Virus record (IMG/VR): IMGVR_UViG_3300037466_003065
Span: 96,001 to 160,000 of that record
Length of the DNA: 64,000 bases
Source of the DNA: a virus
Direction: 5' to 3' (one strand)
In this document: in pieces, positions 54,170 through 63,366 of the stretch
Layout of the letters: each line of letters starts with the position of its first letter
Numbering within the stretch: position 1 is the first letter of the stretch
Position numbers and translations under genes: made by a program
Notes under the pieces: generated by a model
What the model saw: the letters and a program-made list of their open reading frames with translations, nothing else
Database searches by the model: none
Told to the model about the DNA's origin: nothing

Positions 54170-54478
54170 TTACTTGACGACGTTGGTGGATATGAACCCG
54201 CGGGTGCCCAGGATGCGGTTGGCGTACATCAGGTTGTTGTGGTCGCCCTTGCGGATCGCCTCGTCGGCCTTGGCGGCCCACTCGAGGTAGAGCAGGGACA
54301 TCGCTACGTTGCCCTCCCGCTCGAGTGATTCGGCGTACGCCAGCATGCCCGCGGCCGCGTTGGTGAGGTTGGCGTACAGGCGGGTGTGTGGGGCGTGCTC
54401 GTGCAGCGGCCGGGGCCGGGCCTGCTGTTCCATGGCTTCTCGCAATGATCCTCGCAGGTGGTATGGAAGCTCAGCCAC
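54170..54478 (-). CDS. hypothetical protein
   Basis: GTG start after AAGGAGG. Confidence 0.65.
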   Translation of the reverse strand: MAELPYHLRGSLREAMEQQARPRPLHEHAPHTRLYANLTNAAAGMLAYAESLEREGNVAMSLLYLEWAAKADEAIRKGDHNNLMYANRILGTRGFISTNVVK

Positions 54479-54761
54479 GTTGGGCCTCCTTTCGAATCAA
54501 CAACCACGGTGCGTTCACGCTCGTCCAGATCCTCACGATGATCTGGCCGCCCGTGTGCATCATGATGGACTTCTCGTGCTCGGTCTCCTCGAGCACGGAC
54601 TCGTAGCCTGGCCGGGGCACGCGGGGCAGGCCGTGGGCCTTGGCGATCTTGCCCGCCCGCTGTGGCAACTCCATCAGGGCGCCGCCGGTGGTGATGTAAT
54701 TGAACGCCTTCTCCAGCTCGGCCGGGGACAGCATGGCTTCGACCTTGAGCGGTGTACGCAT
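54471..54761 (-). CDS. hypothetical protein
   Basis: 96 aa; AAAGGAGA RBS. Confidence 0.7.
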   Translation of the reverse strand: MRTPLKVEAMLSPAELEKAFNYITTGGALMELPQRAGKIAKAHGLPRVPRPGYESVLEETEHEKSIMMHTGGQIIVRIWTSVNAPWLLIRKEAQRG

Positions 54762-54824: not shown

Positions 54825-55148
54825 TCACTCCTCCTCAATGGGAGCCAGCACCATAGTAATCCTGGCCCACCTCCCGTAACGCTCCCTCATCTGCTGGGCG
54901 ATGCTCTCCAACTCGCCGAGGTCTCTGATCTCTTTGTCCTCGGTGTGGACTTCGCGGTCGTCGGATAAGGCGGGGATGACGACGGTGACGGTGAGCTTCT
55001 GCATGGGGCTCTCCTTGCTGGCATGATCGAGCAGGTAAGTGATCAGGTCGGCGTTGGAGTCGAGGTGGTGCTTGGTACGGATGGCCTCGACCCGATCCCG
55101 GATCGCGTTGCCTGGGTCGCTGATCTCGATGGTGTAGCGGTTCAGCAT
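54825..55148 (-). CDS. possible ribbon-helix-helix DNA-binding protein
   Basis: N-terminal beta-helix-helix pattern YTIEIS...IRDRVEAIRTKHHLDSNADLITYLLD; no obvious SD. Confidence 0.5.
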   Translation of the reverse strand: MLNRYTIEISDPGNAIRDRVEAIRTKHHLDSNADLITYLLDHASKESPMQKLTVTVVIPALSDDREVHTEDKEIRDLGELESIAQQMRERYGRWARITMVLAPIEEE

Positions 55149-55480
55149 AACTGTACTCGTAACAGTAATATCTCAGACCGACTGTACTGGTAATCTGTAC
55201 TGGTTTGTCGTAACTCCTTTGGTGATATGGACTTGTGTAGGATGCCCCGGTACATCGCCTGTGCTGTAACCCCTTGTGGTTCCTCCAGTTATGAGTGGTG
55301 TGTGCAAGTCGTGGTGGTGGCGGTGGTTACGTGAGGTTGCGAAGAGTTGTGATCGTTGGTTGACATGGACTTAGGTACAGATGGGTGTGGCCGGGGCATA
55401 CAGGGCACGCTACCCCACCAATACCCGAACCCGCCACCTGACCCCGCGTCGGCATCCCATGCTACCATACCGCTACGCAC

Positions 55481-55848
55481 TGTCCCAATTCTGCGACATG
55501 ATCCTCTGCACATTACTGCTGGACGTGTCCCAATTCTGCGACAGCAACCGTGGCATGGTTACCAACTGTGCTGTCCCAATTCTGCGACACCTACCAAACT
55601 GTACTGTCGCAGTTCTGCGACACCTACCACGGTGCGTGCACGCGGGCACTGTCCCAATTCTGCGACACTCATCACGACGTGTGTGCAAAGGTGGTGTCGC
55701 AAAACTGGGACACTGTCCCCGCACTATTACATGAGGGGGTGTCCCAATTCTGCGACAGTGAACCACACACCGTTACACATCATGGTGTCCCAATTCTGCG
55801 ACAGTGTTCATCATGTGATTACGCAGCAGGTGTCCCAATTCTGCGACA
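55481..55848. repeat. array of nine 18-bp quasi-palindromic repeats (consensus TGTCCCAATTCTGCGACA) with 27-28-bp spacers
   Basis: Copies start at 55481, 55526, 55572, 55605, 55650, 55695 (inverted), 55740, 55786 and 55831. Period is 45-46 bp except one of 33 bp. Confidence 0.95.
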
Positions 55849-55864
55849 CGTAATCCCTACCCCA

Positions 55865-56065
55865 TTAGTCCGGCAGTGTGAACCGGTGGGCGTGCTTCAT
55901 GCTGTGCCACCACACCGGTCGGCTCTTGTTGGTGCGGAGGATGAGGATCGTGATGTTGAGGCTCTGGCCCCCGCCGTCCTCCATCGCGACGCCCTGGATC
56001 AGCACCTCCTCGTTCAGATCCAGTCGGAGTAGAGCAGGCGAGTACGCCACCGCATCGCGTTGCAC
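55865..56065 (-). CDS. small hypothetical protein (possibly frameshifted from an ATG at 56091)
   Basis: IQGVAMEDGGGQSLNI resembles a phage motif. The strong RBS precedes an out-of-frame ATG. Confidence 0.4.
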   Translation of the reverse strand: MQRDAVAYSPALLRLDLNEEVLIQGVAMEDGGGQSLNITILILRTNKSRPVWWHSMKHAHRFTLPD

Positions 56066-57953: not shown

Positions 57954-58347
57954 TGCGGTTGAACCGGAACTCGAAGCCGAGGAAGTTGTCGCGGAGCACG
58001 CTGATGCGGGCCTTCGCCTCGTCGAGGGTGTAGCCGGCTTCGACCATCGTCCAGGTGCCGGCGCCGGGGCAGCACTCGGGGATCTGCTGTTCGATCTTGT
58101 AGCGGATCGGCTCGTGCTTCAGCTCCTCCCGCTTGATCTGTTCGGCGAGCTGGGCGCAGTCCCTGCTGCTGAACCCGGCGATCAGGCAGCAGCCGTGCAG
58201 CCGCCGCATCTGCTCGATGGTGCGGCAGGGGACGTACAGCACCTCGTCGACGAGCGTCCAGGTCAGCTCGTTGCGCTCGAGGTGTTCCGACAGACGACAG
58301 GTCTCCTCCTCACCGAGCTTGGAGATGTCGATCGTGAACGTGGTCAT
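57946..58347 (-). CDS. hypothetical protein
   Basis: 133 aa; AGGAGG RBS. Confidence 0.7.
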   Translation of the reverse strand: MTTFTIDISKLGEEETCRLSEHLERNELTWTLVDEVLYVPCRTIEQMRRLHGCCLIAGFSSRDCAQLAEQIKREELKHEPIRYKIEQQIPECCPGAGTWTMVEAGYTLDEAKARISVLRDNFLGFEFRFNRIG

Positions 58348-58400: not shown

Positions 58401-59694
58401 CCCGGTGTACACGATGCTGTCCCGTAGGTCGCTCCAGTTCCCTGTTGCCAGGAGGATTGCGTTATCACCTCATCGTGTCGCTCCCCGGGCATTGCCGGGG
58501 CTGTTGCCTCAGACCCTCCGCGGTCTCCAGTGCGGAGGTGGTCTGTGTCGTCCTACCGTCTCACCCATTGGGCAACGAGAGCTGGGGGCAGGATCGTGGA
58601 CAATGCCACGTCCAACCCAGCCCGCCCCTGCTCCACGGTGTGTTGTGGGCCTGGGCATCTCTGGGAGTACGGCGAAGCGAGCCACCACTGCACGCCGGTC
58701 GGCGTTCTCGACGGGATCTGTGCCTCTGCTACGATCGATCAGTCACGCCCCCATGCGATGGGTCTTTAGCCCTTGCGGCTGGGCATCGGTCACGATCGTG
58801 GCAGGCAAACAGCACGCCCGTCACCCACGCGGCTTGCTAGGCCGAACGGGCGAACGGAGACGACTGCATGCAGCTCATGCTCGCTTCTGTGCTTTCGCTA
58901 GTGCGGCTTTACGCCCGCGTTGCTCCCTTCGGACTCCGCGATACCTTCCGCTGTCGTCCCAGCTCGGGGCTGGTTCTGCGACAGACCACGATCCTTCAAC
59001 GTGCTCGCCTAGCGGGGCCAGGGGCCTGGCCACAAGCCAGACCGCCGCAAGTGGCGTTCCTGCTTTAAATCACGCATCGGCACAAGACCGAAGGTAGGGA
59101 ACGCCCCAAGGCATCAACTCACACTGGGGATCGTGGTCAACGGTACGTCACGCGGCGTCCTCTGGACGCGTCAGAACCGCGGGCGTCGTCACGACGTGCC
59201 GCGGGCCGTTTCAAACCACACTACTACTCACCAAGGTATTCAGAGTCATGTCCCATTCGGGCAGTCCCAACCACACAGTCGGAACATCCGTTTGGGGCTC
59301 GTTTATCACCTTGCCCTTTTGCACCGCGTTACCGGTGCGTTTTAAGGTCGTTTCTTGAGGGTAACGACCCTGAGCAACTTTACACCACCGGAACTATCCC
59401 GCATCCACCGGCCATGAACCCCCGAAGGGGCGGATGGGCGGCTTCCGCTGATAGCCCGCTATGGGCCACCGACCCGGCTCGCCTTGCGAGCTTTGCGAGG
59501 TTGGCTTCCGCCATTCAAGAACCCACCTAGTGGGCGTGCTGTCCGATTCTCAGCACCCGCTGAACGTGGTTCCCGACGAATCGGGGCGACGTTGAGCAGT
59601 CGACCATTGGGGCCGACGCTTGCACCGCAGTCTCTACCGCGTGCAAGGCATCACCTTTGGCCAGTGGCTACCACCGGCCGCAGGGTTTGATTAG
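58401..59694 (-). ncRNA. candidate large structured non-coding RNA (3' portion), unassigned class
   Basis: No credible ORF over ~1.3 kb. More than 15 hairpins, UUCG loops on minus at ~59420 and ~59575, GAAA/GCAA/GUAA loops, and an 11-bp long-range stem (58984-58994 with 59128-59138). Ends at a terminator. Confidence 0.55.
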
Positions 59695-60559
59695 GACAAG
59701 CGAATAGGCACTGTGAGACCCCCGAGCTGGACACTACAAACGACCCCCTTCACTCACGACTACTCCCGAACCACGACCCGGCAGAACTGCGCGGCCGTTT
59801 CCGACCGGTTCAGCAGAACCTGCTCGAAGGCCAAGTCGACGGGCTTGGTTGCCCCGTCGATGGTCTTGACCGACCCGCCGGACAGCGCCCGCACCGCGTT
59901 CATCGCGGCCGGCACGCGGCCCCACGCCCGGTTGACCCACTCCTGCGCCTTCATGAAGTGCTTCGCCACCTCCTCTTTCTTTGCGGCGACCCACTTCTCC
60001 ACCAGCGCCGCATCCTGCGGCTTGACCTCGACGGTGCCGATCTTGCCACCGTCCTTACGGGCGAGCGCCTCGGCGTCAATCGCCTTGAGGCGAGCGTCGC
60101 GGTGCGCCTCAAGTGCGGCCAAGACCTCCACGGTGGGGATCTTGGCGAGGAACCCTTGCGTCACGGTGCGAGCCTTCATGGGCTTGCCACCGTTGCGAGC
60201 CTTGCAGCACGCCTTCACGGCCGACCCGAGCATCGGGCCGGCGCCCGTCCCCTTGTCGAAGATCCCGAAGATCAGGGCATACGCCGCGGCGCTGGTGCGC
60301 TTGCGGAGTTCGCCCATGTCGGCCTTGCGGAGGTCTTGGAGGTTCTGGGCCGTCGCATCGAGAACGAGAACATCCTCGTGCGAGAAGCCCAGCGCCTCAT
60401 CAATCGCCGCTGCCGCCTTCGAGACCGAACGAGAAGAAACTTTCGTGTCCTTAGCCATTGTCAACTCCCGCCGGAACCTGTCCGGCATGTTAGAGACCAA
60501 CAAACAGAACGATAGAACCAGAACCAGCTAAGGGGTCTCACAGTACCTATTCACTTGTC
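59695..60559. repeat. 28-bp inverted repeat pair flanking the ORF at 59760..60458
   Basis: 59695-59722 GACAAGCGAATAGGCACTGTGAGACCCC vs the reverse complement of 60532-60559, GACAAGTGAATAGGTACTGTGAGACCCC; 26/28 identical. Confidence 0.95.
59760..60458 (-). CDS. Ala/Lys-rich helical hypothetical protein nested in the inverted repeat
   Basis: Start MAKDTK after GGGAG; typical codon usage; no recognised family motif. Confidence 0.8.
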   Translation of the reverse strand: MAKDTKVSSRSVSKAAAAIDEALGFSHEDVLVLDATAQNLQDLRKADMGELRKRTSAAAYALIFGIFDKGTGAGPMLGSAVKACCKARNGGKPMKARTVTQGFLAKIPTVEVLAALEAHRDARLKAIDAEALARKDGGKIGTVEVKPQDAALVEKWVAAKKEEVAKHFMKAQEWVNRAWGRVPAAMNAVRALSGGSVKTIDGATKPVDLAFEQVLLNRSETAAQFCRVVVRE

Positions 60560-60830
60560 AAAGAACATGCCTGCGCACGCTCTAGTCGACGGTCGCTCTT
60601 TGCGTAGGGTATGGGCTTATCCCAATGGGGCACCTAGGCACGTACATCGCCTAGGGGTTCTACCCACGTTGACCGCTTGACGTCTCACGACGTAGGCGGG
60701 GTTCGGTGCGGCTGCCGCACCGTCAACGGGCATCGCGTTTTGTCCACCTAGACCCACGACACGCGGCGAACCGCGTAACGTGAGCGGGGGTTTCTCCCAC
60801 GCGACCCACACGAACACGACCGAAGATTTC
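60560..60830 (-). ncRNA. hairpin-rich non-coding segment (candidate 5' portion of the structured RNA)
   Basis: Stems CCTAGGC/GCCTAGG, GGTGCGGC/GCCGCACC and ACGCGG-UUCG-CCGCGT (minus), plus a GAAA-type loop near 60790. Confidence 0.45.
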
Positions 60831-61213
60831 AAAGAGCAACATCACGAGGCACCAGTTAGACGACTGCGGCGAATCCGGCAGAGGTGCGCGGGGTGGGGGG
60901 CTTTGGGATCGGGCGACCTGGTCGGCCTGGCCGACCTATATGGGCAGGCTTTCACATAAGGGTCAGGCCAAACTCAAAATGGGCGGGGGCCTCTCCCAAT
61001 CACATCTGCGAACATGGATCAGATCGAAGGGCGGGCTCGAAAATTAGGCGGGGGCCAGAGTCACATGACCATGACACAGGGGGCGGGGGTGGTCTGAGCT
61101 GGATCGAAAGGGGCGGGGGCGAGATGGGGTCGGTTCAAAATTTTACGGGGGAAGGGTCGAAATAATCAGGGGCATGTTCGGGTTTCTGTTGTTCCACTCA
61201 CAATTAGTTCTAC

Positions 61214-61606
61214 GTGGAACACGAGCTCATCCTTATGTTCCACAGGGGAACATCCGATGTCGGGGGCATGGATTTCAACACGGGCTACATCATGGGGCTG
61301 GTCGTTGGCGGGGGCTGCTTCACGATCCACCAGAACAAGAAGAGTGGGCAGGTCACACCGACGTTCAGCCTGAAGCTGCACGAGCGGGACTACCAGCCAC
61401 TACTCGACCTGCAGAAGCTGTTGGGAGGGACGATCTACGGGCCCTACAACCACCAGAAGCGGAAGTATCGGGCGCTCTTCGTGCGAGGGGCTGATCTGGC
61501 GAAGGCGATCCCTGTGTTCGACAACTACCTGCCGAAGAGCCACAAGAGGGATCAGTTCTCGGCTTGGTTGGAGCACGAACGGGTCAGGGTGCTGTGGCAG
61601 AAATGA
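61214..61606 (+). CDS. single-motif LAGLIDADG-fold protein, catalytic acidic residue missing
   Basis: GYIMGLVVGGGCF, then F.L.L...D...L..L...LGG.IY...R.....L...I.P.FD.YL..S.K..QF..W. Likely start is the ATG at 61268. Confidence 0.8.
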   Translation: MEHELILMFHRGTSDVGGMDFNTGYIMGLVVGGGCFTIHQNKKSGQVTPTFSLKLHERDYQPLLDLQKLLGGTIYGPYNHQKRKYRALFVRGADLAKAIPVFDNYLPKSHKRDQFSAWLEHERVRVLWQK

Positions 61607-62227: not shown

Positions 62228-62809
62228 TTACCCGAGGCCAGTCTCGTGCGAGTCGAGACTCTCGTTCTCGCCACCGATCGAGAGCCGCAGGAAGTCGTGG
62301 GCACAAGGGCCGTCATGACCCTTGGTGCGGGTGCAGGCGGCATAGCCGGGCGTGGGAGGGATGGAGCCGCAACGGGGGAGGGGATGGGGCAGCTTGTGCG
62401 GAGCCGATAAAGCGGCGGGGTGGATACCCTCGACGTGGTTCGGGTCGAGGGTCGGCACCTCGACTCGCGGGGCCTCATACACTGCGGGAGCCAAGAAGCT
62501 GAACCCACGCCTGACCGTGACGGCCATGTTCTCCTGCTGCTCCTGCAGACCGGGAGGGAGCTCGATCTTCGCGCCGGGCAAGAACTTCTCCTTGAAGTAG
62601 GTATCCAGCCCCGCGAAATTTTCGATAGTCGCCGGAATCGTGACCCGCAGGCCGCACCGGTCGCAGAACAGCGCCTTCGCCGTCGCCGTCGTCTGGTGGC
62701 ACGAGACCAGGCCGCCGCAGGTGGTGTGGATCCCCGCGCCGAACGCGTTGATCTTCTCGTGGGGCATGCCGAACACCGACAACCGATCGCCGTCCGTGGA
62801 GATAATCAT
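62228..62809 (-). CDS. Cys/His-containing hypothetical protein
   Basis: H.TCGG...CDRCG and RC.......C....GHDGPC motifs; start MIISTD. Confidence 0.6.
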   Translation of the reverse strand: MIISTDGDRLSVFGMPHEKINAFGAGIHTTCGGLVSCHQTTATAKALFCDRCGLRVTIPATIENFAGLDTYFKEKFLPGAKIELPPGLQEQQENMAVTVRRGFSFLAPAVYEAPRVEVPTLDPNHVEGIHPAALSAPHKLPHPLPRCGSIPPTPGYAACTRTKGHDGPCAHDFLRLSIGGENESLDSHETGLG

Positions 62810-62854
62810 GGGGGCATTAGACCCGTAGGGAGAATTGCCTGCAAGGGGGTGATG

Positions 62855-62940
62855 TGTCCCATTTCTGCGACAGTCCCAGAACTGCGACAGTCCCAGTTTT
62901 GCGACAGGGTAGAAATCCCTGGTGTCGCAGAATTGGGACA
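62855..62940. repeat. second cluster of the 18-bp repeat: three abutting copies on a 17-bp period plus one inverted copy
   Basis: TGTCCCATTTCTGCGACA-GTCCCAGAACTGCGACA-GTCCCAGTTTTGCGACA (62855-62906) and TGTCGCAGAATTGGGACA (62923-62940). Confidence 0.9.
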
Positions 62941-63338: not shown

Positions 63339-63366
63339 TTGATAATCCCAAGGGGATTACTACGAT
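63339..63366 (+). promoter_or_regulatory. sigma70-type promoter for the plus-strand genes
   Basis: TTGATA-N16-TACGAT, ~70 bp upstream of the ATG at 63435. Confidence 0.5.

Follow-up and report, generated by a model that had tools for sequence, protein, structure and literature searches.

In the 64,000-nucleotide window analyzed here (bases 96001–160000 of a 184,787-bp IMG/VR virus record, IMGVR_UViG_3300037466_003065; GC 64.8%), a gap between two leftward genes carries a regular row of nine 18-bp pseudo-palindromic sites, referred to as array B. The favored reading, given a probability of roughly one half, is that array B consists of nine DNA-level docking sites for one protein with two-fold symmetry and that it would control a transcription boundary. 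Three functions survive the analysis (transcription control at a boundary, control of an origin or of iterons, and decoy or titration), and the first is ranked highest. The features on which the argument depends are as follows.

Window 55481..55848: array B, nine 18-bp pseudo-palindromic sites with the consensus TGTCCCAATTCTGCGACA.
Window 55513..55822, plus strand: five (A/G)TTAC sub-motifs, in spacers 1, 2, 6, 7, and 8, each ending 9 nt (once 8 nt) before the next 18-mer.
Window 55149..55864: noncoding gap of 716 bp within a leftward (minus-strand) gene block, holding array B.

The nine copies had been described in an earlier reading of the sequence (the original prediction), and all were recovered at the positions claimed, with starts at 55481, 55526, 55572, 55605, 55650, 55695, 55740, 55786, and 55831 and start-to-start distances of 45/46/33/45/45/45/46/45 bp. 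Seven of the nine match TGTCCCAATTCTGCGACA exactly. Sequence matching also confirmed that copy 4 (TGTCGCAGTTCTGCGACA) is a perfect palindrome of 8+2+8 and that copy 6 is inverted, lying on the minus strand with two mismatches, and the spacer lengths were found as claimed (27, 28, 15, 27, 27, 27, 28, and 27 bp). At up to three mismatches, the window holds 12 matches to the 18-mer compared with 0.04 expected (100 shuffles, none of which reached 12). The TTAC reported in five long spacers was also present, and its register is sharper when counted back from the following repeat, so that the repeat unit can be written as 18 + 13–14 + 4 + 9 nt. TTAC is rare in this genome (166 plus-strand copies in 184,787 bp); in the array spacers it occurs 5 times in 206 bp, ~25 times the expectation. 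Anchored on the following repeat, the spacers have a mean identity of 37%, compared with 25% for shuffles (0 of 2000 shuffles reach it). Because the spacers are homologous to each other, the array is taken to have grown by tandem duplication and then drifted. Seven of the eight spacers keep a length of 27–28 bp and the odd one is 12 bp shorter, about one helical turn; the retention of length while sequence drifted argues that the spacing is constrained. Looking across the whole 716-bp gap, (A/G)TTAC occurs 12 times compared with ~1.8 expected at intergenic density; five copies are on the minus strand in the left part (window 55149–55330) and six on the plus strand from 55326 rightward, and these two sets point apart from a center near 55300.

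The stretch holding the array is noncoding. Open reading frames (ORFs) crossing it have a GC content at third codon positions (GC3) of ~0.55 and negative codon log-odds, against GC3 values of 0.85–0.93 and positive scores in the neighboring genes. The region folds more stably than shuffled sequences (z = −4.7 and −6.4), a result expected anyway of a row of palindromes, and a search against Rfam returned nothing above noise. Two further identities for the repeat were considered and dropped. The units were rejected as repeated sigma-70 or extracytoplasmic function (ECF) promoters, there being no consistent −10 element at a fixed distance from the repeat, and a likeness of the half-site to DnaA or DosR boxes was abandoned in view of differences in spacing and in key bases.

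Array B has to be read together with other loci, because the 18-mer recurs in two more clusters, bringing the set to 17 sites at three places in the genome. The clusters were placed on a gene map of the genome built from GC3, which contains four large gene blocks.

Window 62855..62940: cluster C, four 18-mers starting at 62855, 62872, 62889, and 62923 (the last inverted), at spacings of 17, 17, and 34 bp.
Genome 58032–58128: cluster A, four 18-mers at spacings of 17, 18, and 44 bp.
Genome 159.4 kb across the record end to 41.4 kb: rightward block with sigma-like genes, RNase HII, putative terminase and portal genes, and giant structural ORFs.
Genome 57.8 to 42.0 kb: leftward block (from the GC3-based map).
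Genome 58.3 to 90.6 kb: rightward replication and recombination block, beginning with P0003 (winged-helix-like N terminus), followed by RecA.
Genome 158.8 to 95.2 kb: leftward block of 63 kb, made up of small genes lacking known relatives.

Clusters A and C are located exactly at the genome's two junctions of diverging gene blocks, and in both clusters three of the four sites abut at 17–18 bp. The 184.8-kb genome has 15 perfect GTCSCA-N4-TGSGAC cores, every one of them in array B, cluster A, or cluster C, and the 18-mer yields the genome's most over-represented 12-mers, tied only with a GC-rich simple word. In the logo of the 17 sites, positions 1–7 and 12–18 are invariant or nearly so (2–4, 6, 7, 12–14, 16, and 18 strictly), and the 4-bp center (positions 8–11) is the most variable part. 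The dyad is consistently imperfect, with a left arm of GTCCCA in 14 of 17 sites and a right arm that is always of the GTCGCA type on the other strand. One orientation is common to 15 of the 17 sites, but copies within a cluster arise by duplication, so these shared orientations are not independent events. Conserved arms around a loose center, sites in both orientations, and abutting copies point to a dimeric DNA-binding protein and are not what would be expected of an RNA guide array. The original prediction had offered phased sites for such a protein as one of its readings; that core agrees with the symmetry of the logo, the two orientations, the abutting copies, and the confinement to three clusters, while its centromere sub-option was weakened, as discussed below. 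The segment of ~230 bp that contains cluster A also holds a perfect 18-bp GC palindrome, CGCGCGGGCGCCCGCGCG (L009:6141–6190, corresponding to genome 58140–58189), and a hairpin, ATACCCCC-TTCG-GGGGGTAT, with a T-rich run after it.

Promoter-like sequences accompany the sites at both junctions and, less clearly, in the array gap.

Window 62228..62809, minus strand: P0001, a Cys/His-rich protein of 193 aa, the first gene of the 63-kb leftward block.
Window 62816..62844, minus strand: candidate P0001 promoter, TTGCAG-N17-TCTAAT, at the first leftward gene; its −10 ends 6 nt before the ATG.
Window 55459..55488, minus strand: candidate leftward promoter, TTGGGA-N18-TAGCAT, with its −35 inside site 1 of the array; matched by eye.
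Window 55307..55384, minus strand: C-rich, G-poor stretch; the leftward transcript is 42% C and 10% G (C/G 4.1).

The distance from −10 to ATG suggests that the P0001 mRNA is leaderless. The nearest 18-mer of cluster C begins 10 bp upstream of the −35 in TTGCAG-N17-TCTAAT, and a sigma-70-like promoter, TTGCAC-17-TACACT, lies 45 bp from cluster A. The candidate at 55459..55488 was not picked up by a consensus promoter scan. The C-rich stretch at 55307..55384 falls in the top 0.01% of the genome's 78-nt windows and, as a pattern match, resembles a Rho-utilization site; no intrinsic terminator was found in the 716-bp gap.

From these arrangements we infer a scheme in which one sequence-specific protein with two-fold symmetry would read all 17 sites at the three places. 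At each divergent promoter junction the protein would occupy four packed sites beside sigma-70-like promoters, and on the nine array copies, held at a fixed 45-bp spacing, it could build a larger protein–DNA complex in the long untranslated gap of the leftward early operon. Such a complex might mark or control a boundary between the first 7 kb of the operon, from P0001 to the 66-aa gene next to the gap, and the rest of the block. It could do so by blocking or releasing RNA polymerase upstream of the Rho-site-like C-rich stretch or, alternatively, by gating the promoter whose −35 would lie in site 1. The (A/G)TTAC of the spacers, which looks like a half-site, may in addition recruit a protein that reads a second operator, TAATC-N7-GATTA.

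Perfect copies of TAATC-N7-GATTA occur seven times in the genome (20902, 48630, 58006, 58326, 58372, 159343, and 167703), five of them intergenic and two in the probable P0003 leader. Nine further copies have one mismatch; eight of these nine are intergenic, and several sit on sigma-70-like promoters. Three copies fall close to the 18-mers of the window.

Window 63343..63359 (genome 159343): perfect TAATC-N7-GATTA on rightward promoter-like sites near cluster C.
Window 62803..62819: one-mismatch operator of the TAATC-N7-GATTA type, overlapping the P0001 −10 and start codon, beside cluster C.
Window 55851..55867: one-mismatch operator TAATCCCTACCCCATTA, 2 bp from the last 18-mer of array B.

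A perfect copy also lies 9 bp from cluster A. Since an operator of this type thus adjoins each of array B, cluster A, and cluster C, at distances of 2 to 36 bp, the two kinds of site are paired at all three loci. GATTAC, the right half of the perfect operator, precedes the first cluster A site at N8, as (A/G)TTAC does in the spacers, and the 8-mer ATTACTGC is common to the cluster A flank and array spacer 1. A moderately distant relative (contig L012), in which the P0003 homologue is 49% identical by BLASTP and both junction promoters are kept, has TGATC-N7-GATCA at the places equivalent to those of TAATC-N7-GATTA. The predicted recognition helix of P0003 differs from that of the L012 homologue. 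This difference is compatible with P0003 as a reader of the TAATC-type operator and not of the 18-mer, and it hints at co-variation of the P0003-type protein with its operator between the two phages. Another candidate reader of TAATC-N7-GATTA is an 83-aa MerR-family helix-turn-helix (HTH) protein (MerR, 49 bits), encoded in the late region at L269:1429–1680 (genome 21484–21735), just after a perfect copy.

Several observations count against the docking-site reading. The array was found only in near-identical strains (at least 99.4%) and is without comparative support; L012, the one moderately distant relative whose sequence spans a cluster position, lacks the ~230-bp segment holding cluster A and has no 18-mer cluster there. 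The genes flanking the array and clusters match no DNA-binding family of Pfam or PHROG. The promoter and Rho-site assignments are pattern matches only. Recent duplication may account in part for the uniformity of the spacing. In addition, nine sites exceed the usual needs of an operator and are commoner in centromeres, iteron control loci, and origins.

Searches for further occurrences of the site or its surroundings gave little. The public phage collection held no close DNA match. The exact 18-mer gave one chance match among viral contigs, in unrelated AT-rich DNA, and the degenerate 18-mer, scanned against 185,579 species genomes together with metagenome contigs, gave single chance-level matches and no arrays among the matches listed. 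RecA used as bait for relatives retrieved only generic matches (40–51%), and P0003, P0001, and the P0003 alignment retrieved nothing from viral contigs. The relative found through the large terminase (44% identity) is a 175-kb phage of 44% GC with no such motif or array. The near-identical strain contigs (L264–L267 and L282) say nothing on co-variation, because they are at least 99.4% identical; L282 is 99.4–99.96% identical outside a replaced patch of 93 bp inside P0001 (L282:10253–10345).

The genes on either side of the array offer no obvious binder.

Window 54825..55148, minus strand: gene for a 107-aa protein, the first downstream of the array; unlike its neighbors, it lacks a Shine-Dalgarno sequence.
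Window 55865..56065, minus strand: 66-aa gene of no known family, the last upstream of the array.

The 107-aa protein has no relatives in Pfam, PHROG, PDB, or Atlas, and an exhaustive HMMER search returned only its own cluster (99%-identical strains) and one repeat protein. Its single-sequence model, of low confidence at a predicted local distance difference test score (pLDDT) of 66, has a strand-helix-helix N terminus. A by-eye assignment as a ribbon-helix-helix protein was unsupported, fold searches giving no meaningful match. P0001 carries the motif CG..PPTPGYAACTRTKGHDGPCAH, which seven proteins that are otherwise unrelated, among them a NUDIX protein, share without variation.

The wider genome looks like that of an apparently virulent, actinophage-like phage of 185 kb, to judge from its sequence. 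CheckV estimated the 184,787-bp record to be complete, and its ends overlap by ~190 bp, which identifies it as a circularized assembly. In six-frame family searches of the genome, no match was found to tyrosine or serine integrases, ParB, ParA, or Xre-type HTH proteins, hence the virulent appearance. Several sigma-like proteins are encoded, consistent with a staged transcription program. Two of the sigma-factor-like genes lie just right of cluster C at L010:4376–5518 and L010:6053–6748 (genome 160375–161517 and 162052–162747); they match Sigma70_r2/r4, and one has a C-terminal extension of ~190 aa. Their presence suggests a phage-encoded sigma cascade.

If the 18-mers are not operators, the alternative best able to explain them is replication. 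The 18-mers would be iterons, the four-site clusters would act like the lambda origin, and the nine-site array would serve copy control or as a second origin. Recurrent sites divided between loci are known in such systems: P1 has 5 iterons in oriR and 9 in incA, P4 has ori and crr, and the lambda origin has four iterons of 18–19 bp. Here, too, many sites are distributed over several loci, clusters A and C have four each, both are at points of divergent transcription, and cluster A is immediately upstream of the module in which P0003 comes first and RecA next. The asymmetry of the sites (GTCCCA left, GTCGCA right, 15 of 17 in one orientation) is iteron-like, and the array gap contains one of the most AT-rich segments of the genome.

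Window 55141..55240: AT-rich window at the left end of the gap, 41% GC, the second most AT-rich 100 bp in the genome.

This window, however, is 240–340 bp from the array, also spans a gene start, and has a GC content of only 41%. A distance of ~60 kb separates the array from the replication genes, and the small genes around it have no known relatives. When GC skew is cumulated over the genome, no turning point is specific to the clusters, and the array is near a small local skew maximum, a weak signal and the opposite of the minimum usual at bacterial origins. In L012 the P0003 homologue, the two promoters, and the second operator are all retained, yet the junction carries no 18-mer cluster, an observation that tests P0003 alone as the initiator. 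No initiator is assigned: the model of P0003 is poor (pLDDT 47) and the best fold-search match uninformative (Z 4.8), and an initiator fold for P0003 was dropped on these grounds. An origin or iteron function is possible but, on balance, unlikely.

A separate proposal concerns the identity of the binder. Near the array, the only recognizable DNA-reading fold is that of a LAGLIDADG protein. Its gene, located between array B and cluster C, is the only one of this family that the genome contains.

Window 61214..61606, plus strand: LAGLIDADG gene with a single motif, 46 bits against Pfam.

Single-motif LAGLIDADG proteins are homodimers that act on pseudo-palindromes of ~18–22 bp, with conserved arms around a 4-bp center. 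The 18-mer logo has that shape. The motif GLVVGGGCF aligns with GLYEGDGYF of I-AniI and with GFTDAEGSF and GFVSGEGSF of solved enzymes; Gly replaces the metal-binding Asp/Glu, and for this reason the phage protein is predicted to be unable to cut DNA. It is basic (isoelectric point 9.8), and the three strain contigs examined for it (L264, L266, and L282) encode it without change. On these circumstantial grounds it is a candidate binder. The fuller proposal, that it lost catalysis and was domesticated as a homodimer on the 17 sites to organize early transcription or replication, is doubtful, and the same features would be seen in a selfish endonuclease gene undergoing decay. If the proposal were true, it would clearly exemplify the conversion of a selfish nuclease into a regulator. 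Around the LAGLIDADG gene and a 247-aa ORF (59760–60503), no codon-biased ORF extends across window 58401–59694 and 60560–61213, and Rfam gave no match to these two segments at E ≤ 1.

A function as a decoy would also retain DNA-level binding, with nine high-affinity sites soaking up a phage or host regulator to delay or sharpen a switch and with no local role. Seven of the nine array sites are the identical consensus, sites in the promoter clusters are more degenerate, and the array stands apart from the clearest promoters, as a sink might. A pure decoy does not need the fixed spacing and the TTAC sub-motif, both of which are kept. Furthermore, no known host motif was recognized, and the scans of species genomes and metagenome contigs showed no 18-mer arrays among the matches listed. 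The chance that titration is the main function is accordingly rated as slim.

The centromere sub-option of the original prediction, a plasmid-type partition site of the F sopC or R1 parC kind for a plasmid-prophage state, rests on form. F sopC is made up of twelve units of 43 bp, in each of which SopB binds a 16-bp inverted repeat, and dispersed extra partition sites are known for N15. Array B likewise consists of tandem units that each contain an inverted repeat, and sopC is its closest formal look-alike. In searches of the genome, ParB_N (PF02195), AAA_31 (PF13614), and RHH_1 gave no match, and CbiA (PF01656) gave only the RecA P-loop, below the cut-off; a search with StbA_N/ParM was without match, but its controls failed too. 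There was also no match to integrases, resolvases, HTH_3, or HTH_31, and nothing indicates a lysogenic or plasmid lifestyle. Because no ParA, ParB, or integrase gene was found, a partition function is very unlikely.

Equally improbable is a genome-end, packaging, or injection-stop signal, with array B and cluster C as the limits of a 7.4-kb segment that would enter first or be terminally repeated. Analogues would be the injection-stop region of T5 and the short repeat arrays beside the terminal repeats of T7. The leftward operon's first 7.4 kb does lie between the two loci, and in a circularized record with a ~190-bp overlap the physical ends are not fixed by the assembly. The putative large terminase and portal genes, however, are at least 18 kb away, and the third cluster, at 58 kb, is far from any such segment.

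The least credible explanation is an RNA-level guide array, transcribed and processed into ~45-nt units in the manner of CRISPR or TIGR systems. The layout of repeats and spacers is regular and includes a second conserved element, and the region folds stably, though any row of palindromes would do so. The repeat is 18 nt with one copy inverted, compared with ~23–50 nt and one orientation for CRISPR direct repeats; this, together with the absence of a Cas1 match, upholds the statement in the original prediction that the array is not a canonical CRISPR. Six-frame searches of the whole genome found neither Cas1 (PF01867, the only cas family searched) nor Nop/Tas (PF01798) at E ≤ 1. The spacers are homologous, unlike the unrelated, acquired spacers of CRISPR, and the sites of clusters A and C abut with no spacers at all. 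None of the array spacers has a convincing match elsewhere in the phage's own genome: spacer 4 (window 55626–55643), the best, matches 17 of 18 bases of 54503–54520, inside the 96-aa gene 54471–54761 (E 0.009), and this is probably a chance match. Comparison with relatives for spacer turnover, which the original prediction had proposed, revealed no unit gained or lost in four near-identical strain contigs from the Joint Genome Institute; these have the same nine units, a single-nucleotide polymorphism at window 55517 in spacer 1, and an identical gap length. The dual-repeat, TIGR-like variant of the guide idea is not supported either, given the missing Nop/Tas and Cas1, the different geometry, the homologous spacers, and the lack of turnover.

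The array therefore falls outside CRISPR, TIGR-Tas, and type I partition systems alike. TIGR arrays have two alternating repeats of 8–12 nt, spacers of 9–12 nt, a 36-nt unit, and an adjacent Tas gene with a Nop domain (PMC12045711). They share with array B a phage-borne, regular arrangement in which a second conserved element stands between variable stretches, and they differ in that the unit here is 45 nt with an 18-nt repeat and no Nop-domain gene is present. For the LAGLIDADG candidate, the precedent is WhiA, a domesticated LAGLIDADG relative without the catalytic acid (PMC3384342). The phage protein also lacks this acid, and its gene lies between two site clusters. WhiA is a two-domain monomer with an added HTH domain; if the phage protein were the binder, it would be the phage equivalent of WhiA, though one that reads DNA with the surface of the endonuclease itself.

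Among systems that act at the DNA level, F sopC resembles array B in having about ten tandem units of ~45 bp, each built around a short inverted repeat as the binding site of a dimer. Conservation covers the entire unit in sopC; in array B it is limited to 18 of the 45 bp plus TTAC, SopA and SopB are missing, and there are two further clusters at promoters. The iteron replicons of P1, P4, and lambda have, like this phage, one type of dyad site both in a compact cluster close to replication genes and, kilobases distant, in a larger and looser array. They are set apart by the absence of cluster A from L012, the position of the array among early genes without known relatives, and the lack of a skew signal. 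In multi-operator actinophage repressors, as here, one short site recurs in the genome of a high-GC phage, transcribed regions included. The sites of these repressors (the "stoperators" of L5 gp71 and the conserved inverted repeats of phiC31) are scattered singly over many intergenic regions, and the bound protein could stop elongation. The difference is that here 17 sites are gathered in three clusters, one of them strictly phased, and neither a repressor nor an integrase was found.

Rows of protein-binding sites are already well known as operators, iterons, and centromeres. The 45-bp phasing, the diverged spacers, the spacer sub-motif, and the spacer-free clusters at divergent junctions were not found together in known or searched systems, and their setting, an apparently virulent 185-kb phage with no partition genes or recognizable repressor, is also unusual. 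The array illustrates that CRISPR-like regularity can arise by tandem duplication of a binding-site unit, and the identity of the binder would help in learning how a large uncultured phage times its early genes or starts replication. Taken as a whole, the genomic logic of the array resembles that of the multi-operator actinophage repressors, and its form is closest to that of F sopC and P1 incA/oriR.

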